Assembly (NCBI GenBank): GCA_900128565.1 | Contig: LT635955.1 | Location: 1 to 33,316, forward strand | DNA length: 33,316 bases | Origin: Stramenopiles sp. TOSAG23-6 | Taxonomy: Eukaryota | Direction: 5' to 3' | In this document: piece by piece, positions 9,011 to 32,752 of the stretch | How the letters are laid out: every line of letters begins with the position of its first letter | Position numbering within the stretch: position 1 is the stretch's first letter | Program-made: the position numbers and the translations under genes | Notes under the pieces: generated by a model | What the model saw: the letters and a program-made list of their open reading frames with translations, nothing else | The model's database searches: none | Told to the model about the DNA's origin: nothing

Positions 9011-9284
9011 GTTTGAACACAAGATAATCTTGACTTGTTGATCTTTGACAAGTCTCTCTATCTTCGACAGTTACGAAGCACGCGGTCATGTAACGTTCTC
9101 GAATCACTTTTTAGTGATCCCAGTTGTCACAATTCGTATATATAGTAGTCAATCAATCACAAAATAATTGAGTGCTTCAATCACTGGCATTTTGATATTC
9201 GACAAATCCATGAAGGGCTAAATCATGTGCCTGCCATTACGTGCAATACGCTCGTTTACCGTATCAACAGTTCATTAATAGTTC

Positions 9285-12200
9285 ATGTCTAGTATACCGC
9301 ATTTAAAAACTCGATCTCCATCACGAAGAATGCCTTCGTCTCGTTCAAGAACAAGACGAGTTGCTTCACGACGGGCGCTATCACGACGCAGTGCAGTAGG
9401 CGATTGTGTTATTGAAGATGAGATCGATATGAAATATAAAACGAATGGTGTCAGAAGTCTGGGTCTGACACAACTAAAATTAGGAAAAACAGCAACGCAT
9501 GGCCCAAGTGTTTTGCTTAAAAAAATTGAAGTTGCACTTCTGAAAGCTGAAAAACATGATCCAAAAGCAATTAGAGAAAGTCACACAAACATAAAATGGA
9601 TAGATCCTGCGTTAATTTTTAATCACACAAAGAAAAGTCCGCGACTTCGGGAAATTAGAAACAAGAGTGTTACAGAATTAGCACAAAAAAGTAACAATGC
9701 TATAGAACAAAATGCACAAAATGAGAAGCTACAAAAGTACAACAACAATATACGAACAAGTTGGCCGCAAGTTCCACCAAGAGCAAAACAACAAGTAGGC
9801 GGTGGGATAGTTGAAAGCAAGATTCGTCGATTGTCATTGCAGGGTCCAAAATCATTATCTGGCACCTTGAAGAATGATTCTATAGCAGAAGGAATAGACA
9901 ACACTATAGTAGTTTCACCCAGAGATTTTTATTTACCCGCTGCAAATAAGATTGGATGTGCACCACTGCCCTCATTTTTCAACAATAAACGCAGTGGGTG
10001 GGATGCTTCTAATGGCCCACTATCAACGTCTACTATACGAAATCGACGAGCTATAGATCTTAATGATGGTAAATTGGGATCTCGCCAAATTTGTGCACTT
10101 TGTGCAACAATTAAAGCTTGGAGACATCAACAATTAACGAATCTAAAAGTTGGTGCTACTCTTCATATCCTCCGCCTGCGAGGAAACATTATTGATGGAG
10201 TAGCTTGTCGAGCTCTTTCCAATTCGTTAAAAGGAGTTACATCACTCAGAGAATTAGATTTAAGCTATAACCCTCTTGGGATTGGTTTCATTACTAGTGG
10301 TTTACTACAGGTCATTGAAAATTCTTTCATTCATACGTTAAATCTAGAATCTTGCAATTTAGGTGATGATGGAGTTTCTGCACTTGTAGCAATACTCCAA
10401 CCTACATGTAAAACATCTAAAACAAAATTGGTGAAAACAGCAAAACAAAATGCCAAGCGTGGAAAACAGGTGAAAGGGAACAAAAAAAATAATCTAGTAA
10501 ATCGTCAAAAAAAGAAAAACAAATCAAAAGTTGAAGTAAATGAAAATAATAGTAATTCTCATGAAACACCAAAAAAAGGAATTGCGCTTACCCTAAGACG
10601 TCTCAATCTCCGCAATAATAATATTCGTGCGGGTGGGTACTTTAGTTTGTATAAAGTACTGAAAAACAGTTCTGGGTTAGGAGCACTACACGAACTGTAT
10701 ATTGGTGGTGAACGAAACTCGTTGGTACAAAGAGCAGCGATCGTGGTTGCTGCTGGCTTATCCGAAAATAAAACTATACAAGTTATAGGGCTTAGTCATG
10801 CTGGATTTGGAAGAAATTCAAAGCCGCCAGTTTTGCCAAAGAAAACAACTGTTGCAATACCTTTAAAACCCGAAAAGAATAAAAAAGGGAGAGGTAAAAA
10901 AGGGAAAAAAAAGGAAGTAACACAACCCAAACCAACTTTTGTAAGAAAACCTACCATTGACATGTATGCAACAACGCCTTTAAAAGCTTTAGCAAAGTCA
11001 CTTGTAGCAAATAAAACACTCCAAATAGTAGATATATCATTCAATAACATCGGTGAGTCTTATAGTGGAAGTTATAGCGAACTTTCTGCTGCTTTTAAAG
11101 TAAATAAAACGCTCAATACAGTAAATTTATCAGGTAATGCTGTTATCATTCACAATGATGGGACATTAGTATCAAAACCAGAAAAATCATTACACGCGAT
11201 GTATAATAACAAAACTTCATATGCAAACATTCGTAGAAAATCAGCAGGGAAAACAGAAAAACATTTAGGAAACAATCATGTAGGCACTTGCAAAGTATTT
11301 GCTACTAGATTTTCTGGTCTTCCTTCACTTCCATGTTTCGAATCAATTGCTGATGAAGCGTGGCACACTCTACCAATGTGTTTCATCGCATCAGAGTGGG
11401 TTCCGCACATGTTTTACTTTATTCCGGGAATTTCTGGGGAATACTCTAGCAAGAAATCTACGAAACATTTAAAACAAGAAAAACAAAATAGGAATAAAAA
11501 GATAAGTAGTATCACACGTCGGAAAGTTACAAATAAATCTATACGTACAGGTGATTCTGTACATAATAAAGACCACCTGGAATCTAACGATATCAAGGTT
11601 CGAATATGGGACACTTCAGGGTGGCAAACTGAGGTACCACTGTCAATTGAAAAGCCTAACGACAGGCAGGCACTTCATTCAGTTCTAGCGGGTCGCATGC
11701 AGGACGCTGCAATGATGGTCCAAAAATATTGGTACCGCGTTAATATTATGAAACATTTTACCCGGCGATTGAATATTGCTGTATTTGAAGAAATGCCATT
11801 AACGGCATTAGGTCGAGCAAACTTGCGCAAAAACGAAGAATCCAAGTTTCGTCAAAAATTGTCTCTTCGGGTAAAAAACAAAGATCTCACAAATGCAGGT
11901 ATGAAAGCTAAACTGCGATCATGGAATATTGCGAAAGATGCTGAAGATACTGCGAGACAGAAACGGCTGGATGCTGCTATAGCACCAGATGAAGATCATG
12001 CTCTTTTTTATATGCGTAATCATTTAGCATCAAAATCTTTAAAGAAAGAAGAACCTTTTCCACACCGAGAAGAAGAAGATCCAATGGTTGTATCTTTAAA
12101 ATTAAAATATAGGCAAGCGTTGAAAAATGGAGTTGATATAGGTCAAATCGAAATAGATCGTATGAAAGACTTTTATGAAAGAAGCTGTAAAGGCATTAAT

Positions 12201-15200
12201 GTTGTACGTGCCTTTTCAACAGCATGCTCTGATGGAAATTGTGCAGTAGTCGCCAGAATGCTTAATAATGATGCAAACCCAAACGAAGTAGATGGAACTA
12301 TGACATCACCTTTGATGCATGCGATTCTTGGAAGGAAACCTAGTGTGATGATAGTGAAGCTCTTACGCGAAGCTGGGGCTGACTTGAACCACGTGAACAA
12401 AAGAGGACGGACAGCATTACATGCCGCGTTTAAAATTGAAAATGTTGAAATTGCAGCTTATCTCATCATACACGGCGCTACGGAATATTTTGACTTATCA
12501 TGGAGGAGACCAAGTGATATGCACAAGATATTTGCTGATAGTGTCTCAAAACTAGTGGAAAAAATCAAAATGGGTACTTTTCAATTGCAACTGTGGATGC
12601 GCAATCAAGAATGTGATAATCTCATATTGAATGAAGGAAAAGAATCTGCAATCAAACTTACAAAAGTGAAGTTCAAGTGTGCAGGTATAGGAAGTCTATA
12701 TCGTGTTACTCCTGCTAAAAATAAATCACGTAGTGTAATTGGTACTTCTGCGAAAAGTAAACTGGTACAAACAAAACGGACTCCCTTTGTCGTTTCTACA
12801 ATAGTTCCACCTCAACCGAATCAGTTGCGTTACCAGTTTAAAGTGAATCATCTACCAATTGTTGCTGCAGACCAAAAATCTATTGTGACCAATGTTCCCC
12901 CTTATCCAACTCCATTACCTTTACCCAATAGAAAAATGAGAAAGTCCAAAACACTGACTAAAGTGTCGCCTCAAACGGATAAAGTAACCAAAAATCGGAA
13001 TGAATCTGATTTATTTCTTAGTGTAGGGGCAGATGACATTCGAACATGTCAAGCAATGCTCACAAAGGGTACAAATCCTAACTGCCAAAACAATCAAAAA
13101 CAAACTCCGATATTCAAAGCATGCTGGTATGGTTCACTTGATATTGTTTGTCTCCTGGTTTCGGCAGGCGCAAAGATAGATCATTTTGATATCAAAGGCT
13201 GTAGCTGTTTACACATGGCGTTTGAGAGAAACCAAAAGCATGTCATCGATTATTTGCTAAGGATAGATGGAGTAGATGCATTGGCTGATAAACCAAATGA
13301 GTTGGGCGTAACACCCCGACAGTTAACCTCGCTCTTTGGAAAAGGTTATGACAAGTCTTTATCTTGGTTTATTGGGGCCCGAAAAGCTGTAAAGAATGGT
13401 GTTTCTTTACTGAAAAAGCGCAATGATGAACGGATCAAGCAGACTGAACACGTAATGTGTTCAAAATTTCAGGGTAAAAAAGCGATAAAGGGTCGTCATT
13501 CAAATGATCGATCAAGAATTTCGCGTATTAATTTTGCATTTGCAAAGCCTTGGGGGAAACGTGATATTTTTGTCTACGCGCAAACTTTAATTAGACAAGA
13601 GAGAGTACGAGCAAATAGTATGCGAGAGAAAGAATCAATCAGACGCCACCACTTGACGGAGACAAAACATGAAGTCAAACCAGAAGGAATCAGCCTCACC
13701 GAAGTTTTATTGGGTGTTGAAAATGATGTACCAGAAGTAACAACTGAAGGTATTTCAGAAGATACCGCTGCAACACGAATCCAATCTTTGCACCGAGGTC
13801 GAATGTGTCGCAGACGAACATTCCAACAATTAAAGGAGCATAAGCGAGTCTTGGTTTCAAAGCATAAGGGTTGGCTTCCAGAAGACTGGGCCATTCATGC
13901 CGCTAAATTTAATGAAGTAGAAGAAGAAATACACAAAATCATGTTAAGTCCTTCGCGTTTACGATCTCTATGGTCTATTTTAGATTCAGATGATAGCGGG
14001 ACGTGTTCTTTAAATGAGATAAAGGAATTCTTTCAGAAAAAATGGAACCTTCTCTATATACCAGAAGCCATACATTGTGCGTATTTGGAAGACACTAGTT
14101 CTCACGACGGTCGTATCGAGGAATTAAAGAAGCAGAAGTTTTGTTCTCTGCTCAAGAACATAATGTCATTCTGTCGAATTTGGGATGCATTAGATGGAGC
14201 AGACACAAATGGTAATAGAAATATAGAGTCCCGAGAGCTTAAAGTTGTGCTATCTCGACTTGGTATTAGTATGGATAAAGCTGTATCCTCCGCAGCATTT
14301 AGGCATATATACAAGGGCGGTGGTGCAAAATTGAGTGAGCTCCGTGATTGGTATAGTATGTGGCTAGCAAAGTTTACTACAAGGAAACTAAAAAAACGAA
14401 GGAGAAACTCATATACTTCAGATACCACAAGAGACAAAAAAGAAACAACCGCATTAATTAAGGCAGTTGAAAGCGAACCTTTGGATGTATTCAAACCAAA
14501 ATTGAAAGCACATGTAATCGCAACTTTATCTATGAATGAGTTGCAGAAAGAATGTGAAAATCGGGGTTTACCTCAGATGGGTAGTATGTATATCCTGAAG
14601 CAGCGTTTGCGTCTTTTCATTTTTAATATAGAAACATCATCGAAATCAGGATTATCCAAACATAAAGCTGCGACAAAAATACAGAGTTTTCATCGAAGTT
14701 GCTCAACGCGACGCAGGCTTACTTCCAATATGAAATCTTCCAAAGTCTCGAAAGAAAAGGTTCCACTTAAAAAATATTTATACGATGCATCGTGCAGACG
14801 ACATTATACCCTTTTACCTCAAATGGAAGCTACAGACAATACAAAATACTTTAGCGTCACCACTTTCACGGTCAACACCGCAAGATTTGAATGTGCCAAA
14901 TGTATGATACGTTTCCCTCGAGTACAAGATTTTCGTAAACATATATGTATCAATGAACCAAAAAAAGAACCGCGAAAATTCCCTGGATTTTTTAGCCCAG
15001 AGGAGCTGAATGGGTCAAAACAGGAGGAGTGGAGCGGCTGGATCACTCAGCGTTTTGGATCAGTACCATATTTCCACCAAATTAAAGGTTGGCCGATTAG
15101 AGACTTTGAGGACCATGTCAGAACTCAGAAGTCGACGAAACTAAAGAAAAAGAAACGAAATCCACCGAAGCCTGCGGATTCTTCATCTGTAGAGCTGAAA

Positions 15201-16187
15201 AAAAAACCAAAAAAACGAAACATTCAAACAGAAATCCCACTTACCGCAACGCCATGGTGGTTGTGGCGTTTTGGTCAAATTGAAAATGACTTAGTCGATT
15301 CTTTTCACGCTCTAAGTAGAAAGAAACCTAGAAAGGTAACACGCTCACTAACTACATTAATAGAATGTTGGCATGAAATTGACCCTGATCCTTCTGGGAG
15401 TGATTACATAGGACCTATCACTGTTGTATTGCCTTTCATTACAAAATTAGTGCGCGATAGATACCCTGTACTTTACACATCTGGGACGCGTCTCAATTCA
15501 ATAACTGGGCCAATTTCTCAAGCATTTAATGCAACACTACGCGAAGCGAAAAAGCCGATGTACGCTAAGCTGATACCAAATGAGAAAAAGGAAGGTTATA
15601 TATATAGTCAGCATATAGGTTTATTACTCAGAAATTTATTTTTCTATTGCAGCATAGAACAAATGTTTAGAATGTTATTCCCCGATTGGCGCAGCGGTAC
15701 AAAACATATCCCAAAAACAATTACAAAACAAAAGGGAGAAAAATATAAAGAAAAAAAAGAATCCCATCTCGGGAGAGCGATCGATAAGAAAGAAGTACCG
15801 GAAGTAGTCGATCGTAAGTATCACGACGCAGCAATAATTATTCAATCAATCCAACGTGGCATATTTGTTCGACAGGGAGACATGACACAGAAGTCACCAG
15901 ATTTTACTAGCATCCAAATGAAATATACTGATGCGACACACTGCCGTATGACTTACAAATTGTTCAAAGATGCTCGCGTAATGATGAACATGACTCCGGG
16001 GGCTTCAAATAAAACCCTAGATGGAAATGATGGGAAAGCATTGAGAATGTTTGCAAAAATTGCCGTGGAACCAGGTAAAAGTATTAGGAAGAAATTTTCC
16101 AGTACATACCTCGAAAAGATTGCAGTAAATGGAAGTTGCTCTTTTGAAAATTTCATTAATTGGTTGAAAAAGACCAGAGTTTGGTGA
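9285..16187 (+). CDS. 2300-aa multidomain protein: RNI-like LRRs, two ankyrin clusters, four IQ-like motifs, EF-hand (calflagin-like) modules, SAP-like motif, C2H2-like finger
   Basis: LRELDLSYNPLG and IHTLNLESCNLGDDG (LRR); GADLNHVNKRGRTALHAA and QKQTPIFKAC (ANK); AATRIQSLHRGRMCRR (IQ); DSDDSGTCSLNE and DTNGNRNIESRE (EF loops); LSMNELQKECENRGL (SAP); FECAKCMIRF...FRKHIC. Uninterrupted ORF. Confidence 0.85.
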   Translation: MSSIPHLKTRSPSRRMPSSRSRTRRVASRRALSRRSAVGDCVIEDEIDMKYKTNGVRSLGLTQLKLGKTATHGPSVLLKKIEVALLKAEKHDPKAIRESHTNIKWIDPALIFNHTKKSPRLREIRNKSVTELAQKSNNAIEQNAQNEKLQKYNNNIRTSWPQVPPRAKQQVGGGIVESKIRRLSLQGPKSLSGTLKNDSIAEGIDNTIVVSPRDFYLPAANKIGCAPLPSFFNNKRSGWDASNGPLSTSTIRNRRAIDLNDGKLGSRQICALCATIKAWRHQQLTNLKVGATLHILRLRGNIIDGVACRALSNSLKGVTSLRELDLSYNPLGIGFITSGLLQVIENSFIHTLNLESCNLGDDGVSALVAILQPTCKTSKTKLVKTAKQNAKRGKQVKGNKKNNLVNRQKKKNKSKVEVNENNSNSHETPKKGIALTLRRLNLRNNNIRAGGYFSLYKVLKNSSGLGALHELYIGGERNSLVQRAAIVVAAGLSENKTIQVIGLSHAGFGRNSKPPVLPKKTTVAIPLKPEKNKKGRGKKGKKKEVTQPKPTFVRKPTIDMYATTPLKALAKSLVANKTLQIVDISFNNIGESYSGSYSELSAAFKVNKTLNTVNLSGNAVIIHNDGTLVSKPEKSLHAMYNNKTSYANIRRKSAGKTEKHLGNNHVGTCKVFATRFSGLPSLPCFESIADEAWHTLPMCFIASEWVPHMFYFIPGISGEYSSKKSTKHLKQEKQNRNKKISSITRRKVTNKSIRTGDSVHNKDHLESNDIKVRIWDTSGWQTEVPLSIEKPNDRQALHSVLAGRMQDAAMMVQKYWYRVNIMKHFTRRLNIAVFEEMPLTALGRANLRKNEESKFRQKLSLRVKNKDLTNAGMKAKLRSWNIAKDAEDTARQKRLDAAIAPDEDHALFYMRNHLASKSLKKEEPFPHREEEDPMVVSLKLKYRQALKNGVDIGQIEIDRMKDFYERSCKGINVVRAFSTACSDGNCAVVARMLNNDANPNEVDGTMTSPLMHAILGRKPSVMIVKLLREAGADLNHVNKRGRTALHAAFKIENVEIAAYLIIHGATEYFDLSWRRPSDMHKIFADSVSKLVEKIKMGTFQLQLWMRNQECDNLILNEGKESAIKLTKVKFKCAGIGSLYRVTPAKNKSRSVIGTSAKSKLVQTKRTPFVVSTIVPPQPNQLRYQFKVNHLPIVAADQKSIVTNVPPYPTPLPLPNRKMRKSKTLTKVSPQTDKVTKNRNESDLFLSVGADDIRTCQAMLTKGTNPNCQNNQKQTPIFKACWYGSLDIVCLLVSAGAKIDHFDIKGCSCLHMAFERNQKHVIDYLLRIDGVDALADKPNELGVTPRQLTSLFGKGYDKSLSWFIGARKAVKNGVSLLKKRNDERIKQTEHVMCSKFQGKKAIKGRHSNDRSRISRINFAFAKPWGKRDIFVYAQTLIRQERVRANSMREKESIRRHHLTETKHEVKPEGISLTEVLLGVENDVPEVTTEGISEDTAATRIQSLHRGRMCRRRTFQQLKEHKRVLVSKHKGWLPEDWAIHAAKFNEVEEEIHKIMLSPSRLRSLWSILDSDDSGTCSLNEIKEFFQKKWNLLYIPEAIHCAYLEDTSSHDGRIEELKKQKFCSLLKNIMSFCRIWDALDGADTNGNRNIESRELKVVLSRLGISMDKAVSSAAFRHIYKGGGAKLSELRDWYSMWLAKFTTRKLKKRRRNSYTSDTTRDKKETTALIKAVESEPLDVFKPKLKAHVIATLSMNELQKECENRGLPQMGSMYILKQRLRLFIFNIETSSKSGLSKHKAATKIQSFHRSCSTRRRLTSNMKSSKVSKEKVPLKKYLYDASCRRHYTLLPQMEATDNTKYFSVTTFTVNTARFECAKCMIRFPRVQDFRKHICINEPKKEPRKFPGFFSPEELNGSKQEEWSGWITQRFGSVPYFHQIKGWPIRDFEDHVRTQKSTKLKKKKRNPPKPADSSSVELKKKPKKRNIQTEIPLTATPWWLWRFGQIENDLVDSFHALSRKKPRKVTRSLTTLIECWHEIDPDPSGSDYIGPITVVLPFITKLVRDRYPVLYTSGTRLNSITGPISQAFNATLREAKKPMYAKLIPNEKKEGYIYSQHIGLLLRNLFFYCSIEQMFRMLFPDWRSGTKHIPKTITKQKGEKYKEKKESHLGRAIDKKEVPEVVDRKYHDAAIIIQSIQRGIFVRQGDMTQKSPDFTSIQMKYTDATHCRMTYKLFKDARVMMNMTPGASNKTLDGNDGKALRMFAKIAVEPGKSIRKKFSSTYLEKIAVNGSCSFENFINWLKKTRVW

Positions 16188-20332: not shown

Positions 20333-23300
20333 ATGGATGCTGATGCACATATAGCAATGAAAGAATATAGGGGTGATGATTTGGATTCCGACTCGGATTC
20401 TGATGACGCTGTGGACGAATCGATGGCTGTGGACGAATCGATGGCTTTGGACGAATCGATGGCTTTGGACGAATCGATGGCTTTGGACGAAGACGGGTCA
20501 AGCACTATTGCTGTAGGTGGTTTTACAACTTCTACCGATGAATTTGAAGAGCCACCAAAAGAAGAATCTAAAGGTTCAAACGAAGAGTATGGTATCGATG
20601 ATGATCTCGACGACTCTGATAGCGAGTCTTCCATAGCTGAATCCTCAGATTCCTCTTCTGAGAGTGAATCTGACGATCCTGCTACTGCTGTAACGCTAGG
20701 TTGGCGACAGAGCTCTCGTTCTCGCGGAGGGAGCAAAGTATCATACGCAGAAGTGAATGAAAATGGGAAGAAGATTAAGAAAAAGTGGCGAACGAAGAAA
20801 AAGTTAACGAAAGCAGATCGTCGGCGAATAGAACAAAGAAAATCTCTTCCAAAGAAACAACAAATTCTGATTCCTCCACCTGGCGCAAAGATTCCTTTAG
20901 CAATTGAGCGTATTCTTGGACGTCGAGAATACCACCCAGATAGTTCGCCATCTTCAACACGCCATGCAATGACGTCTTCTCCTACTCATTCTCACTCTCC
21001 GCGTAAACATTTTGGATCTGTCCCTCGAGAGCAATATTTGGTAAAATGGAAAAAACGCAGTTATATACATGCAACCTGGGAAGATGTTGACGTCCTCCTA
21101 TCTTGGCATCCAAAAGGTCCATCTAAAATGAAGCAATTGATCCAAATTTTCTTGAAGCGTCAAGAGCGTGATCGTTGGAGTGGTGCTGTTATCGAAGAAA
21201 ATAATTTTCCGCAAGAGTACATTGAACCTGAGAAACTTCTTGAGTGGAAAGATTTTACACCAGCAGCTTCAGAAAGTTCATCAGCTGTGGGTAAAACGTC
21301 CGATGTAAATGATAAAGAAAAGAACACTACGACATTAGAAATAACTATTCCTAAAGCTGCTGCGCTAGATCCAAATCGTAGCACTATGTATGTTTTATTT
21401 TTTTTTNAANTCGANTTTTTTTTCGTACNAANTTTTGTACCTAACAAAAAAAAAATGAAATATTTTTCCAAAACACATTGAAGAGGAATCACGACATCGA
21501 AGGCGACTTTACTTTGGTTCGAATGAACCTAAAGGACGTTGGTTTCTTGTGAAATGGCATGGTCTTCAACATGAGGAATGTACGTTTTTATTTGAATTTA
21601 AAAATTATTTTTCCTACCTTAAAAATTCAATTGTAGAAATATATTTTTAACTCTATTTTTTTCTACAATATTTTTTTACTATACATCAACGTGGGAGTCA
21701 GAGGCCAATTTAGTTCACACAGGAAGTTTTAAAACTGCATTAAACATATGGAAAACTCATCAAAGTGTTATTCAGTATAAGAAAGCACCACCTCGTCCAT
21801 CTGCCACCAGTTTCGTTAAAATGAATGAGTCACCGGTATACTCTACACGGAATGGTGTTGGTGGTAAAAAAATTCAATTAAAACTTCGCGATTATCAGCT
21901 CACAGGTGTTAATTGGTTGCTCTTTAATTGGTATAATCGTCGAGGGTCAATATTAGCAGATGAAATGTATGNTTTTTTTTTTTTTGTGTGATTTTTTTTT
22001 CGTACGAAATTTTGTACCTAACATTTTTTTAGATTTGTTTTTGAAATATTTTTCACAAGACATGGGGTTAGGTAAGACTATTCAAACAATTGCGTTTCTT
22101 CGTGCTCTTAGCTCTGGGAGAGATAGTCAAGTTCGAGGACCTTTTCTAATTGTTGGCCCATTATCATGTATTAATCAATGGTATCGTGAGGTATCAGAGT
22201 GGTGGTCAGAAGCGAACATTATTTTCTATCATGGTAACGCTGCATCACGTCGCGTCATCCAAGAATATGAATGGTGGAAACGGGAGAAGACTGGTGTAAA
22301 TACTCCGGAATATAACTTTCAAGTAGTTGTAACTACATATGAAATGTGTACAATGGATTCGACCTTTTTGAGACGGGTTCCTTGGCAATGTGTTGTAGTT
22401 GACGAAGCTCACCGTTTAAAGAACCCTAATTCCAAATTAGCTCTGGAGCTTAGTCAATATCATCGAGAACATGTTGTTTTGTTAACTGGGACTCCATTGC
22501 AAAATAATATGAGTGAATTATGGGCTTTATTACATTTCACTGATGCATCGAAATTTCCCAGTCTTGACAAATTTTTAGATAATTTTGGCAATTTGAAAAA
22601 TAAAGGGCACAAAGCTGTCTCGCAGCTCCATGAAGTGCTCCGGCCATTTCTTTTACGGCGTTTGAAAGAAAATGTAGAAAAAAATCTTCCGCCAAAGGAA
22701 GAGACTATTGTTGAAGTACCTCTTATGCCATTACAAAAACAGTATTATCGTGCTATTTATGAACGTAATACGGATTTTCTATATAAAGGCGCTACTGCGG
22801 CGAATGGACCATCATTGATGAATGTTGTTATGGAATTACGTAAATGTTGTAATCATCCATATCTTATTCGAGGTGCAGAAGAATGGTTATCCTCGGGTAT
22901 TGATCTGAATGATTCAAAGGCTATATTTAATAGATTGGTTGAAGTATCTGGAAAAGTTGTATTACTGGATAAATTGCTTCCCAAACTTAAGGCTGGTGGT
23001 CATAAAGTTTTAATATTTTCACAAATGGTGCGCATGCTGAATATTTTAGCTGATTGGACAAAACATAAAGGTTTTGATACGGAGCGGATCGACGGTAGTA
23101 TACGTGGTAGTGAACGTCAAAATTCGATTGATCGGTACATGCAATCTCCTGATTCATTTCTTATGCTTCTTTCTACTCGCGCAGGTGGTGTTGGTATTAA
23201 TTTAACTGCTGCTGATACTGTTATTATTTTTGATAGTGACTGGAATCCACAAAATGATATTCAAGCTATGGCGCGTGCTCATCGAATTGGTCAAACAAAA

Positions 23301-27602: not shown

Positions 27603-29060
27603 TTATGTCATTGTCTTTGTGCTCTTCTGTCGCATCATTTGAAGAAATTCACTGTAGTCAACTTCTGAGTCGTCCCCTCCGACTTCAAGGAGCATTTTTT
27701 GTACCTTTTCATCATCATACTGAACACCTAGAACCTGTTGTAGATCTTCTTTTGAAATGGCACCACTTCCGTCAACGTCAAGTTTTGTGAATGCTTCCTT
27801 GAGCCGTGCTTCATCCATGTACGTTTTTTGGTCTAGACAAGCAGTCACAAATTCAGATAACTCCAATTTGCCATCATTTGTTGCATCTAAACCTTGGAAT
27901 ATTTTATCTACTTCAGCCTCGGTTATTGCACCTGTTTTTGTGATGGCATCTCGAAGTTCATGCATCGTAACAAATCCATCGTAGTTTGTATCCATGGCTA
28001 AGAATTGTGCTTGTATTTCTTGAATCTGACTTGGAGTTAGACTGAAAGCAACAGTTGCAACGGCCATTCTTTTAAATTCATTCAAGTTCTTGAATTTAAT
28101 CATATTTTCACAAATTTCTCTATTTAGTTGAACTTGTGGGTGATCAGCTTGTTCTTTGATGATCCATTTGTGATTCAACGCTTGTCGTGCTGTAAGGCGT
28201 TTTGATGGATCTTTTACTAACAGCTTATTAATAAAGTCTTTCCCATCATCTGAGACTTTTCCCCATACAGGAGAGAACATTGTATATTCACCTATCCTTA
28301 CGTTTGAAATAATCTCAGAATCTGTCTCTCCAGGAAAAGGAGGGTTACCTGATAAAAGCATGTACGTAATCACACCAATTGACCAGAGATCGCACGCGGA
28401 GGTGTATTCGTGGTCAAGGACTTCAGGGGCAATGTAATAGGATGTCCCAACAACAGAAGCCATCTTTGTACTTGACATACATTTTACTCTTTTGGAAAAC
28501 CCAAAATCAATCATTTTTAGAACGCTATCTTCTGCCTTGGTTGCAAATATGAAGTTCTCTAATTTGAGATCTCTGTGAACCATATTTTTGTTGTGAATAT
28601 AATTCAAAGACTGCAGCATCTGTAAAACAACATTTGCTGCAGCAGCCTCATTGAAGCGCGAGTTTTCAGAGTCTAGTAGTCGATCAAATAACTCACCTCC
28701 CGTGCAAAGCTCCATAATCATATACATATTTTGGCCCGTTTCTTCAAATGCTTCGTACAAACGCGCAACATTTGGGTGATCCATTGAAGCAAACAATGTA
28801 ATTTCATCACGTATTTGCTTCAAGCTAGTGGCACTATTCGAACCAATTTTCATTACTTTTAGAGCAAACTTCTGGCCATCGCTTCTACGAGAAACGATCG
28901 AAACTTTACCTGAGACACCTTCTCCCAAGAAATCTGTATTGTCAACTCCAGAATACTTTTTCCGAATTGCAGCGCAGTCACAAATATGATACTTCACAAG
29001 ATTTTCGTGCATTGTTCTGTTTTCATTTGAAATAGCTGCCTTTCCTCCACATATTCCCAT
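27603..29060 (-). CDS. Calcium-dependent protein kinase (CDPK)
   Basis: MGICGG (likely myristoylation/palmitoylation), LGEGVSGKV, HRDLKLENF, DFG, GTSYYIAPEVL, a junction region and four EF-hand-like loops (DTNYDGFVTMHE, DATNDGKLELSE, DVDGSGAISKED, DDSEVDYSE). Intronless. Confidence 0.95.
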   Translation of the reverse strand: MGICGGKAAISNENRTMHENLVKYHICDCAAIRKKYSGVDNTDFLGEGVSGKVSIVSRRSDGQKFALKVMKIGSNSATSLKQIRDEITLFASMDHPNVARLYEAFEETGQNMYMIMELCTGGELFDRLLDSENSRFNEAAAANVVLQMLQSLNYIHNKNMVHRDLKLENFIFATKAEDSVLKMIDFGFSKRVKCMSSTKMASVVGTSYYIAPEVLDHEYTSACDLWSIGVITYMLLSGNPPFPGETDSEIISNVRIGEYTMFSPVWGKVSDDGKDFINKLLVKDPSKRLTARQALNHKWIIKEQADHPQVQLNREICENMIKFKNLNEFKRMAVATVAFSLTPSQIQEIQAQFLAMDTNYDGFVTMHELRDAITKTGAITEAEVDKIFQGLDATNDGKLELSEFVTACLDQKTYMDEARLKEAFTKLDVDGSGAISKEDLQQVLGVQYDDEKVQKMLLEVGGDDSEVDYSEFLQMMRQKSTKTMT

Positions 29061-29372
29061 AATTGGTTGCTTGGATAACGTCAGCAGTTACCGGTGAAAT
29101 TAAGTTTATGATTCGATAGAGGAGTATTTGAAGAAGGGTACCAGTTGACGTTGAACGTCGATCTTCTTGGACGTATGTAAGATCTGAAGATCTTTGATTT
29201 TAAACTGAAAAAAAAACTATTGATTTCGTGTATTCGGAGAAGAGTCCAACCAATTCGTAACTGTTGCTGTTCTAGTATTCTTTCTTTTCCTTCTTGTTTA
29301 GAGCAAGTCAAGAAGTCCTCAATGAGTCATTGCATACACTAATTGTTTCTCCTATTGCATTATCTCAGGGCC

Positions 29373-30934
29373 ATGCCCCCTAAATCAGATCGCTATGTGA
29401 AGTTGTCAAAGGAAGATCAGGGAATTTTTGTTCCACGACCTATTGAGCAGCAAGTGAGACGAGATGCTTACAACCCAATGAGTGTTGATGACTTTCTAGA
29501 TGAATATGAGGAAAAGTATATGGACGAAGATTTTATGGCTGTTGTTGCAGATGGAAAACTTACTAATACGGAAAGGCTTAAAATGCAATTGCGTAAGGAG
29601 AACGGTAAATATAAACGGGTAAATTTAACAAGTCAAATAATGTCAAGAGCAGAAAATATAAGGGGAAAGGAGTTGCAGGAAGTTAAAAAAGAATTTAAGA
29701 TGAAAACGTTTCATGAGAAACAGAAACGTCGAATTTCTATAGCAACAACTAATGAACCATTAGCAAAAAAAATATTACGTTTTTTATCATGTGGCCCAAC
29801 ACCAGGGAAACTACCACATCCAAAAGTTCAAGCAAAATTTCTACCTAAAATTGTTCGTGCTGACTATGTACGTTTTCATCTCAATTTTTTGTCTAAATAT
29901 TTTTTTCATACGAAATTTTGTACCTAACATTTTTTTTTTTTGAAATATTTTTTCATAATCCATGACTCGGTTTCAAAGGCTTTGAAGTTCAACCAACCAG
30001 TGAATTATTGCGACAACTTGAATCGATCTGGTTTATATTTAGCAACATTCTATGGTTATACACATATAGTTCAGCTTCTTTGCGCATATAATGCTGATCC
30101 AAACATATGTGAACTTGAAAAGGAACAAAATGCAGGGCATGTGGCCGCAGAAAAAGGCTATGGTGACATTCTAGATTATTTATTAGACCGAGGTTTAGAT
30201 TTAACAATGGGAGACAAAATGGGTCTCACCCCCTTAATGCATGCAGCTAATGCGGGTCATTATAAAACATGCATAATGATGTATGTTTTATTTTTTTTTT
30301 TAAACAAAAAATCGAATTTTGTTTTCGTACGAAATTTTGTATTTAACAAAAATATTGAATGTAAAATATTTTTCAAAATACATAGTGGAATGTGATATTA
30401 AGATAGACATGGTCGATAATAGGCGGTGGACAGCCTTGCATTATGCAAGTCAAAAAGGGTTTTATAGAATCTGTAAATATTTGGCCGCGCAAGGATGTAC
30501 GTTTTCATAATGAATTTTTACGAAATTGTTTTTTCGTACTAAATTTCGTACCTAACATTTTTTTTACTAAAAAAAAAATATTTTTCACATTACATGGGAC
30601 TCATATTGTAAAGACATGAATGGGCAAACACCATTAGATATTGCAGAGATGGAGCTAGATAATATTATAAAAAGTGCGTTTCGTTGATGAATTTCAAATT
30701 AATTTTGTTTTTATACGAAATTTTGTATTAATACCTAACGAATCTCGAATCTAAAATAATGTTCACAATTTATGTACTCGAGGATTATCCCCTGAAGAAG
30801 CAAAACTTTTCAATGAGAAAAATGCAATTATGATAGAAAACTATGAAAATGTAATAAATGTGCTTAATACTGATATGACTGATTGGAGAGCAGTTGAAGA
30901 ATTAAAGAGACAAAAAGAATTAAACAATAGGTAA
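29373..30934 (+). CDS. Ankyrin-repeat protein. Exons 29373-29867, 29964-30280, 30384-30496, 30596-30673, 30774-30934
   Basis: After removing four inserts there is a continuous ORF with consecutive ankyrin repeats (RSGLYLATFYG, QNAGHVAAEKG, LTPLMHAANAGH, WTALHYASQKG, GQTPLDIA) ending at TAA 30932-30934. Confidence 0.85.
29868..29963 (+). other. Non-canonical GT-AT intron D (96 nt) in ankyrin gene
   Basis: gactAT|GTACG...cgaaattttgTACCTAAC...gaaatattttttcataatcCAT|gactcg contains an in-frame TAA and joins RAD-Y-DSVSKAL. An in-frame AAG at 29978 is possible but would delete 5 residues of the ankyrin-like helix. Confidence 0.75.
30281..30383 (+). other. Non-canonical GT-AT intron E (103 nt) in ankyrin gene
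   Basis: atgAT|GTATG...ttttcgtacgaaattttgtatttaac...aaaatatttttcaaaataCAT|agtggaa gives GHYKTCIMIVECDIKIDMVDNRRWTALH with exact ankyrin spacing. The adjacent AG (30384-30385) leads to TGA three codons later. Confidence 0.88.
30497..30595 (+). other. Non-canonical GT-AT intron F (99 nt) in ankyrin gene
   Basis: caaggAT|GTACG...tttcgTACCTAAC...aaaatatttttcacattaCAT|gggactca gives GWDSYCKDMNGQTPL, matching the spacing of G-A-D-V-N-A-K-D-x-x-G-x-T-P-L. Contains an in-frame TAA. An in-frame AG at 30613 would delete 6 residues of the repeat. Confidence 0.85.
30674..30773 (+). other. Probable GT-AT intron G (100 nt, divergent family member)
   Basis: aaaa|GTGCG...tatacgaaattttgtattaaTACCTAAC...aaaataatgttcacaattTAT|gtactcga has the same motif-to-end spacing as the other copies. 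An in-frame GAG acceptor at 30782 is an alternative. Confidence 0.65.
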
Positions 30935-31004: not shown

Positions 31005-31865
31005 TTAAATTCCCATTCCTCCAGTGACTTCTAATATTGTTCCCGTTACATAAGACGCATGAGGTGAAACCATCATTAATACACCACCTGCTGCTTCTTC
31101 TGGTGTACCAATACGTGCAAGAGGTATACTCGCAGCGATAGCTTGATCACTCGCGACAATACCACGTGACTTCGAAGGCATTCCCTGAACAACTTCTTCA
31201 CCATTCGCTAACACTACAGTTTCAATTTCTCCTTCATCTGCAGCCTGGGTCATTCGAGTATCTATCCAACCATATGCAACAGCATTACATCGAATGCCAA
31301 AGGACCCCCACTCTTTTGCGACAGTACGAGTAAGTCCTAATATAGCAGTCTTACCTGAGGCATAGTTTGCCTGACCAATACTACCATGAAGACCAGATGT
31401 AGATGATATATTGATTATACAACGATCTGCAGGGTCAATACCAGAAGATTTCTCCTGTTTTCCTATTTCACGCATATATGGAGTGGCAGCTCGGATCATC
31501 TTAAAAGGAACAGTAGCGTGCATATCAATGATAGACTGCCACTGTTCGTTACTCATTTTGTGCAACATTCCATCCCAAGTAAAACCAGCGTTGTTCACAA
31601 GTACATCCACTGAACCTTTACCAAATATAGGATTTGTTGCGGCCAATTGCATGAGTGTATCTGGGAAGTCCTCTTCTAAGACACTACCAGGAAATGCAAG
31701 TGCCTGGCCACCAGCGTTGTTAATTTCCGCAACGACTGCTTCGGCAGGTTCTTTGCTAACGTCATTGACGACAACAGACGCACCTTGTCTAGCTAATAAT
31801 TTAGCAGTTGCCGCACCAATTCCTCGACCAGCACCTGTTACTATGGCAACTTTTCCAGTGAGCAT
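31005..31865 (-). CDS. Short-chain dehydrogenase/reductase (3-oxoacyl-ACP reductase-like)
   Basis: TGAGRGIG, NNAG, catalytic S and YASGK (YxxxK), GIRCNAVAYGWIDT, IPLARIGTPEEAA. Intronless. Confidence 0.93.
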   Translation of the reverse strand: MLTGKVAIVTGAGRGIGAATAKLLARQGASVVVNDVSKEPAEAVVAEINNAGGQALAFPGSVLEEDFPDTLMQLAATNPIFGKGSVDVLVNNAGFTWDGMLHKMSNEQWQSIIDMHATVPFKMIRAATPYMREIGKQEKSSGIDPADRCIINISSTSGLHGSIGQANYASGKTAILGLTRTVAKEWGSFGIRCNAVAYGWIDTRMTQAADEGEIETVVLANGEEVVQGMPSKSRGIVASDQAIAASIPLARIGTPEEAAGGVLMMVSPHASYVTGTILEVTGGMGI

Positions 31866-32752
31866 GGCGTGCTATTCAAATGAAGGAGAAATAACAAAGA
31901 AACAGGTGTAGCGTTTTCAGTCCCACAAGTGATACTCTCTTTGTGTCAAGTTTGTTGGTGTTATGGCATATCTCTAGCAATTTTGACTCGAAGTTCGGAA
32001 CTGGTCAGTCAAAAAAAAAGATAAAAAAAAAAAGATAAAAAAAAAAGGGAAAAAGGGGGGTCATATTAGATCTTATTGCCCCCGCACCATGCGCCCGTCG
32101 CAGTATTATATGAGAGGGGTAGTCTGAATTGAGATGAAAACTGATTCGTCGTGAAACACGAAAAATTTGAATTTCTCAATTTATTGCTGCTTCCCTTTAA
32201 TTTTTGCGCTTGCAAAAAGACATTACTGATACATTTTCCGCATTGATTGCTTTTAAAGCGAGAGATGAGTGAAATCTATTAGGGTCAGTTGAAAAGCCTT
32301 CAGCACCGATGCACTGGTGATGACTGAAGCTCTGACGGAGAGTTTGTACTATTCCGCTATGCGTATTAGTATAATGCACTCAACCCGCAATGGACCTGTC
32401 GATTGAAGCCTATATGAATGTATCACTTTGATATATGAAATATTTGCATTAGATGTGATTAGACCTTGCACCGTCGGTTTATCTTGGTAAAGTGTCCACC
32501 ATATTGTTGATAATATGACTGTGTGACTACTTTTCGATGATTAGACTGAGGGAGGATTTCAGTAGGCAATTGGAAACGCATTAGTTCATGAGTATAGTCG
32601 TTTGACTGTAGTACATTAGACTGATTGCATTACAAATTACACACTGAAAGAAAACACTGGAACATTTATTAGTTTAAATATTCCTGTTTTCACAACGACT
32701 TGTGTATAGTATTGTACTTTAGTATGGTATTATATACAAGGCATATGATAGT
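31866..32752 (+). other. Spacer expected to hold the Pol I promoter and 5' ETS (and the divergent SDR promoter)
   Basis: Positional inference: non-coding DNA directly upstream of 18S. Includes an A-tract repeat (A9-GAT-A11-GAT-A10-GGG-A5-G6) at 32011-32060. Confidence 0.6.

Follow-up and report, generated by a model that had tools for sequence, protein, structure and literature searches.

Gene content of the window

The window analysed here is a stretch of 33,316 nt from the stramenopile TOSAG23-6; in the assembly, which totals 21.1 Mb over 6,236 contigs, it is contig C5. We found an ankyrin-repeat gene with five coding exons and, next to it, a CHD-type helicase gene carrying introns of the same family (Table 1). 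The majority of the genes in the window have no intron, and positions 1-1280 contain coding tandem repeats of ~153 nt.

Table 1. Features of the window; a slash marks the splice site, lower case the exon and upper case the intron.
Feature	Position	Strand	Description
LRR-ankyrin frame	9282-16187	+	Intronless, 2,301 aa
Intron A, CHD-type helicase gene	21388..21478	+	Family intron; contains Ns
Intron B, CHD-type gene	21580..21686	+	Diverged family intron
Intron C, CHD-type gene	21967..22063	+	Family intron; GT...AT removal restores ILADEMGLGKT
Calcium-dependent kinase	27603-29087	-	Intronless
Ankyrin-repeat gene	29373..30934	+	5 coding exons, 387 aa; Ank_2 E=1.7e-21
Coding exons, ankyrin gene	29373-29867, 29964-30280, 30384-30496, 30596-30673, 30774-30934	+	
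Intron D	29868..29963	+	at/GTACGT...TCCAT/g, 96 nt; branch-point box TACCTAAC at 29921-29928
Intron E	30281..30383	+	at/GTATGT...TACAT/ag, 103 nt; variant branch-point box TATTTAAC at 30340-30347
Canonical TAG overlapping the AT acceptor of intron E	30383..30385	+	Use would cut the protein at 273 aa; 466 bits
Intron F	30497..30595	+	at/GTACGT...TACAT/g, 99 nt; TACCTAAC at 30549-30556
Intron G	30674..30773	+	aa/GTGCGT...TTTAT/gt, 100 nt; TACCTAAC at 30732-30739; no upstream AT
Short-chain dehydrogenase	31005-31871	-	Intronless

Introns of the ankyrin gene

Removal of the four introns of the ankyrin gene as GT...AT yields one 387-aa frame running from 29373 to 30934. The donors of D, E, F and G are GTACGT, GTATGT, GTACGT and GTGCGT, and the introns end in CAT, CAT, CAT and TAT. 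The initial annotation had proposed four GT...AT introns in this small gene, and their coordinates, starts and ends were all recovered as it gave them. Its description of the four as copies of one family stands in that core and end boxes are common to D-G; their mutual identity is just 66-78% (shuffles: mean 59-63%, maximum 64-68%), and the copies are diverged rather than near-identical.

Repeat-start motifs lie at residues 187, 221, 254, 287 and 320, a spacing of 34, 33, 33 and 33. Junction E falls within residues 254-287 and junction F within 287-320, and the 33-aa spacing is kept at both. The ankyrin register, earlier put forward as independent support for the YAT ends, therefore speaks for them at E and F. 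At D it is weak evidence, since the intron precedes the first motif and an 'AD' merely stands in for GH, and intron G lies past the last motif, outside the repeats. The register string previously given for F was shortened; the complete one is GF-YRICKYLA-AQGWDSYCKD-MNGQ-TPLD.

A search with exon 2 recovered 3 orthologous proteins out of 48 candidates. The 387-aa product is identical to P0001 at 266/387 positions, to P0002 at 194/317 and to P0004, a cluster member, at 239/387, and all three align without a gap at all four junctions. P0002 and P0004 span all four intron sites, and their contigs (1,430 and 2,193 nt) may be transcript. This colinearity argues more strongly for the YAT ends than does the ankyrin register. 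Eight runs of marine metatranscriptomes contained 0.06-0.20 of the sampled words of the gene, a figure that measures word sharing and not junctions. In a metagenome scan with the ankyrin exon, just 2 distant loci matched, at 29-36% identity, and no transcript did; an ESM Atlas search with P0001 returned generic ankyrin clusters only.

AT and AG acceptors compared

We scored every GT-AG, GC-AG, AT-AC and AT-AG pair with a donor from -30 to +30 and an acceptor from -60 to +39 around each site. In alignment to the orthologues GT-AT was the top-scoring pair at all four junctions. At junction E, where cutting at AT keeps the IVECD of the orthologues, an AT-AG pair (+2/+2) scores 18 points below GT-AT, and the 8 best full-length options include neither a GT-AG nor a GC-AG pair. 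At junction G an AT-AC pair (-7/-7) falls 9 points short, out of 3,754 points summed over the alignments, and GT-AG cutting at +9/+9 retains the 387 aa for a loss of 28. The margin in favour of the AT ends is clear at E and F, good at D and slim at G, where shifted pairs come close. At E and F a shift of -2, giving AT...AC, ties with GT-AT, because an AT precedes the donor and both cuts yield the identical mRNA; with an upstream AT present at D, E and F, the register has a sliding ambiguity.

To rank the AG alternatives, for which scoring against an ankyrin HMM had been proposed, we used a profile built from the three orthologues. The GT-AT product scores 652 bits and exceeds every AG option: 637 (D), 466 (E), 625 (F) and 641 (G). 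The in-frame AGs anticipated for D, F and G are present at 29978, 30613 and 30782, and would delete 5, 6 and 3 residues. At E the AG directly after the CAT (30385) truncates the protein, again as anticipated. A second copy with an AG next to its CAT (L084) has 390 codons open by way of AT and 5 by way of AG. Across the family, an out-of-frame YAG lies ≤10 nt downstream in 16/87 introns, as against 9-18 in seven control windows; such nearby YAGs are not depleted, and therefore AG seems not to compete. In 13/87 introns a YAG lying 10-15 nt past the branch point is skipped. Together with the orthologues, we infer from L084 and the undepleted YAGs that AT is chosen over the adjacent AG at E, in agreement with the initial annotation. 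The comparisons support YAT ends at all four junctions, and at the level of DNA and protein the AT-ended introns appear real and well supported. The sliding ambiguity, together with the 2-bp duplication and the changed U1 described below, goes beyond that annotation.

A genome-wide family of introns

In the CHD gene, removal of introns A-C as GT-AT gives a 2,290-aa frame. If intron C is cut at its first AG, the frame stops at 489 aa. The motif restored by its GT...AT removal agrees with the CHD1 chain, which reads ADEMGLGKTIQ.

The family core has 6,987 matches in the genome and none in a reversed control, a count raised by duplicated contigs and lowered by the fixed pattern; viral contigs held no match to it. 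Our sample of 627 kb comprises the window and 60 stretches, partly picked for richness in matches. It contains 245 cores, of which 158 were kept for good end scores and 87 dropped for weak ones. The 158 copies start with GT (138), AT (9) or other dinucleotides (11) and end in AT (131), GT (8), AC (6), TT (5), AG (4) or others (4); as trinucleotides, CAT accounts for 100 ends and TAT for 30. The YAG acceptor of U2-type introns is therefore seen in 0 of the 4 introns of the ankyrin gene, and AG in 4 of the 158 copies. For one end subtype counted genome-wide we observed 1,235 YAT, 325 YBT and 85 YAG ends. Among 98 copies with long frames on both sides, the frame is open at the motif end in 90, at the first AG in 32 and with the intron retained in 8. 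As is typical of introners, many similar introns are found at unrelated positions, and they lie in sense to genes in 143 of 158 copies, antisense in 1 and unclear in 14.

The element carries signals of its own, namely a GTAYGTTT donor, the branch box TACCTAAC (in 135/158 copies, 31-60 nt from the 3′ end) and the 3′ box TTTTCACAATAY, and its core contains the palindrome TTTCGTACGAAA. The distance from branch point to 3′ end is bimodal in the 158-copy sample, with peaks at 34 and 43 nt. Starts other than GT (AT, GC, GA, GG and other) occur in 20/158 copies, for example in L056, L057, L062, L065, L069 and L089; some AT-starting copies lie within open frames, and AC is the end of two. A few canonical introns of the form GTAAGT...CAG, unrelated to the family, remain in the genome, as at L056:7182(+) and L069:6251(-), although they pair more poorly with the variant U1.

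Two-base duplication at the intron ends

The last two bases of the intron match the last two of the preceding exon more often than in shuffles (72 vs 60.8 at -2; 78 vs 73.1 at -1), with no excess at -3. This 2-bp duplication is present in 103/138 GT copies and absent in 35/138. It extends to ends other than AT: in 19 of 24 copies ending in GT or TT, the last two intron bases equal the exon end (TT with TT 12, GT with GT 7), and Fisher's test on the TT and GT table of exon-end and intron-end matches gives p=1e-4. The 24 copies are what remained of 30 loci once we had removed duplicates, 1 copy with a poor donor and 2 short rows. Upstream of the 158 copies the bases are C or T at -3 in 107, A at -2 in 113 and T at -1 in 136. 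AG-ended copies are mostly off the duplication rule, with an upstream AG in 3/21 rows and AT in 7/21. A 4-bp CATG duplication was rejected, there being no covariation at -3 or +1.

The terminal inverted repeat of the family is ~4 bp. MITEs of the PHIS/ISL2EU type make AT duplications. We do not place the family among them, since the element starts with GTAY and has this short repeat, whereas such MITEs are described with inverted repeats of at least 6 bp and usually a GG start (PMC4482050). DDE_Tnp_4 loci inspected for an autonomous partner had no matching ends. A Harbinger-like element was rejected as partner on the same ground; one such element, at L098:1050-1110, has a DDE_Tnp_4 frame convergent with a second frame and a short copy of the intron core between the two. 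Two further observations concern the ends. The intron base at +4 matches the downstream-exon base at +4 above shuffles (57 vs 42.1, p=0.0006, one of 12 positions tested), and the copy at L035:7573-7690 is flanked by a 14-nt direct repeat that is the element's own 3′ end.

A U1 snRNA complementary to the family donors

We found a single U1, whose arm, AAACGUACAUG, is perfectly complementary to CAT/GTACGTTT. The Rfam U1 arm is AUACUUACCUG, and three arm positions are changed here. A2 pairs with T at +7 in 136/138 donors, G5 with C or T at +4 in 134/138 and A9 with T at -1 in 123/138; in the textbook U1, C9 faces G at -1. Altogether 135/138 donors pair better with the variant U1 (mean 9.2 vs 7.0 Watson-Crick pairs), as do all 7 donors of the window, and the mean duplex energy is -9.8 kcal/mol with the variant against -2.1 with the textbook arm. 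The variant supports cleavage at GT over an AT-AC register, and its agreement with the starts of these introns suggests that U1 has changed to match them and that the splicing apparatus has adapted to the introns invading its genome.

This U1 scores 54.1 bits (E=3e-12), below the Rfam cut-off of 69.5. It sits in a U5-U2-U1-U4 cluster on two contigs that have 664 nt in common and then diverge (L153:9-645; G000:C1146 and C6122), a compact tandem with gaps of 2-23 nt in two flanking contexts. The loops of stem-loops 1 and 2 also differ from the Rfam consensus. The textbook arm has 7 matches in the genome vs 10 in controls, which is chance level, and the one checked is not a U1. The U6 contig carries family cores; the examined part of the U1 contigs contains no family core, and their composition is within the range of the sample.

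Other spliceosome components

GUAGUA of U2, the U5 loop and ACAGAGA of U6 are unchanged. The alpha-finger of Prp8 is identical to that of the 11 homologues shown, including the glutamine described as reading the -3 base (PMC12707134). Prp8 was rejected as the cause of the AT ends: with the alpha-finger intact, it differs from all others at 61 conserved columns, several of them read as X because of Ns, and its nearest relative, P0014, has 68, so there is no specific link. Elsewhere in this protein (L032; G000:C84), MTAGQATF stands for MSSGSTTF, the beta-finger has two conservative changes, and TRPFLL for TRKGML adjoins an N-rich patch and may be an assembly fault. In a Prp8 FastTree of 57 rows, built without a block of almost identical sequences and without 4 insect rows on long branches, the genome groups in a clade with oomycetes and Tribonema (support 0.997), sister to a EukProt protein, and we take it to be that of an uncultured stramenopile.

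Slu7, Fyv6/FAM192A and one U2AF65-like gene are present. In the last (L121; G000:C433) the second RRM resembles a repeat of the first, and what we presume to be the U2AF35-binding stretch has F, not W. In this incomplete assembly we found 0 candidates for Prp18, the search by PRP4 domain giving a single WD40 protein, and no U2AF35 by motif, zf-CCCH or UHM searches. For U2AF35, the first motif match falls within an unrelated 519-aa frame and is read in a different phase; the second motif has 6 matches vs 10 in controls, none with surrounding protein; the 16 zf-CCCH matches reduce to 11 distinct frames, none U2AF35-like; and the UHM query found only itself. The single zf-U1 match is a 509-aa frame unlike U1C. 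The absences of Prp18, U2AF35 and U1C weigh little, because the assembly is incomplete and introns may break up small genes.

Proposed mechanism and alternatives

With a U1-complementary GT donor (4/4 in the gene, 138/158 in the sample), a branch box and U2, U5 and U6 of ordinary form, the introns would class as U2-type by sequence. We propose, with a probability of about three in four, that they are removed by the major spliceosome, from GT to a YAT end, and belong to a single introner-like family in which a 2-bp duplication gives the acceptor and the donor is complementary to U1. An element would insert with a 2-bp target duplication, the downstream copy becoming the acceptor. U1 would pair across AT/GT, so that step 1 cuts before the G, and the branch would form at TACCTAAC. 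The TTTTCACAATAY box and its spacing from the branch point, rather than a scan for AG, would define the 3′ end, and step 2 would accept U(-1) opposite G(+1). On this proposal the acceptor is AT because the exon end favoured by U1 is AT; AG/GT sites would likewise give AG.

More tentatively, and at rather less than even odds, the host spliceosome may have been retuned as a whole from AG/GT...AG to AT/GT...AT, with U1 changed, U2AF35 and Prp18 lost or strongly diverged, the TTTTCACAATAY box setting the 3′ end and AT used over an adjacent TAG. If true, this would offer an example from nature of co-evolution between the spliceosome of a host and a family of introns invading it.

The best surviving alternative, which we nonetheless regard as unlikely, keeps the same GT-AT splicing and drops duplication at the DNA level: the element would bring its own AT end, by an RNA route or direct insertion, and the upstream AT would reflect selection for U1 pairing. 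The variant U1 alone predicts an upstream CAT, the inverted repeats are weak and no partner transposase was identified among the DDE_Tnp_4 loci inspected. Copies with an AT end and no upstream AT often have GT downstream (14/35 non-duplicated vs 14/103 duplicated copies). U1 pairing does not, however, predict the TT and GT matches among the 24 copies with those ends, and changes at -2 fall mostly at third codon positions (7/10 vs 21/58, p=0.08, not significant), which fits later silent changes after a duplication.

Less probable again is that the introns are spliced as usual GT-AG introns, at AGs close by, and that the proteins are slightly shorter. It could draw on the in-frame AGs at D, F and G, the same-length option at G, the AG-ended family copies and the few unrelated GT-AG introns of the genome. 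It finds no candidate among the best full-length options at E, the first AG is in frame in just 32 of the 98 coding-context copies, and a cut at AG would break ILADEMGLGKT at intron C.

Slightly less probable still is a register shifted by two bases, in which these would be AT...AC introns of the minor spliceosome. Such a cut gives the same mRNA at E and F, and in many copies the donor is preceded by AT and the last two intron bases by AC. Over 90 frame-open copies, however, AT and AC fit both ends in 37 and GT and AT in 73. The shift would make D an AT-CC and G an AA-TT intron, and it creates a stop at 2/23 differing junctions, in a set chosen as open in the GT register. C8-A7 of U1 faces the GT. 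Minor U12-type introns have an RTATCCT donor and a TCCTTAAC box close to the 3′ end; the donor here is GTAYGTTT and the branch point lies 31-60 nt from the end. U12 and U6atac snRNAs were not found in this incomplete genome, in a search run without a positive control.

Least probable is removal outside the spliceosome, by DNA-level excision or by splicing guided by pairing of the ATGTAT and ATACAT inverted ends: these can pair over ~6 bases and the core holds a palindrome, but the strict sense orientation, the branch box and the U1 complementarity point to the spliceosome.

Relation to known systems

Introners of the Chrysochromulina type bring a 5′ splice site with them, whereas their 3′ site is provided by a target duplication (PMC9860276, Fig. 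2C). The introns described here resemble them, as characterized there, in being short, AT-rich, high in copy number, at unrelated coding positions and without effect on mRNA length, and in apparently having the donor carried by the element and the acceptor provided by the duplication. They differ in that the duplication is 2 bp rather than 4 bp and the acceptor is AT, GT or TT and not AG, and also in their ~7,000 core matches and diverged copies (66-78% in the ankyrin gene). Duplications of 3-9 bp are described for earlier introner families (PMC9860276).

AT is the commonest 3′ intron end in Fritillaria borealis (34%) and F. pellucida (44%) (PMC13326754). As in that account, YAY occurs both before the donor and at the intron end, and a transposon origin is proposed there. 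Fritillaria donors are mostly non-GT (AG-AC and AG-AT introns), whereas GT, mostly strong, is found in 138/158 copies here. U2AF is reported as duplicated in Fritillaria; here we found one U2AF65-like gene and, in an incomplete assembly, no U2AF35. Two U1 versions with one common 5′ end are reported there and a non-textbook arm is found here, in unrelated lineages.

Co-evolved U1 arms are described for Entamoeba (AACAAAC) and Mastigamoeba balamuthi (ACGUAC) (10.1101/2022.06.08.495308). The arm here has similarly changed to fit a donor with a +4 pyrimidine: its ACGUAC core is the Mastigamoeba variant and, as in Entamoeba, pairing reaches +7 through an A at position 2. Unlike those systems as described, the exon-facing position 9 is changed (C to A) and the acceptors are AT.

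In S. cerevisiae without Prp18, CAU and UAU are the best-used non-G acceptors, an upstream U tract is needed, and a U(-1)-G(+1) pair has been proposed for them (PMC10711555). The ends here resemble these HAU acceptors (CAT 100, TAT 30 of 158). In the yeast mutant, as reported, they are minor mis-splicing, whereas here HAU is apparently the normal end of most introns. Further comparison literature is given in PMC10639083, PMC11282704 and 10.64898/2026.04.17.719054. Our literature search, mostly of open-access papers, returned no stramenopile with GT-AT introns or with a changed U1.

Few rules of eukaryotic gene expression are as fixed as the AG acceptor. Thousands of AT-ended introns alongside normal U2, U5, U6 and Prp8 alpha-finger and a changed U1 would isolate the enforcers of that rule. 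Two questions become testable: whether the exon-end and intron-end match of AG/GT...AG stems from the duplication of sites that U1 favours, and whether it is Prp18 and U2AF35 that keep natural introns from using HAU acceptors. A ready-made competition reporter would be junction E, where AG comes directly after a CAT. Gene finders and introner surveys limited to AG or AC ends, as described in PMC12130899, would tend to miss or mis-annotate such genomes. The assembly itself contains duplicated and inverted-duplicate contigs (G000 C2, C13/C14, C2432-C2440), with some truncated intron copies at the joins.
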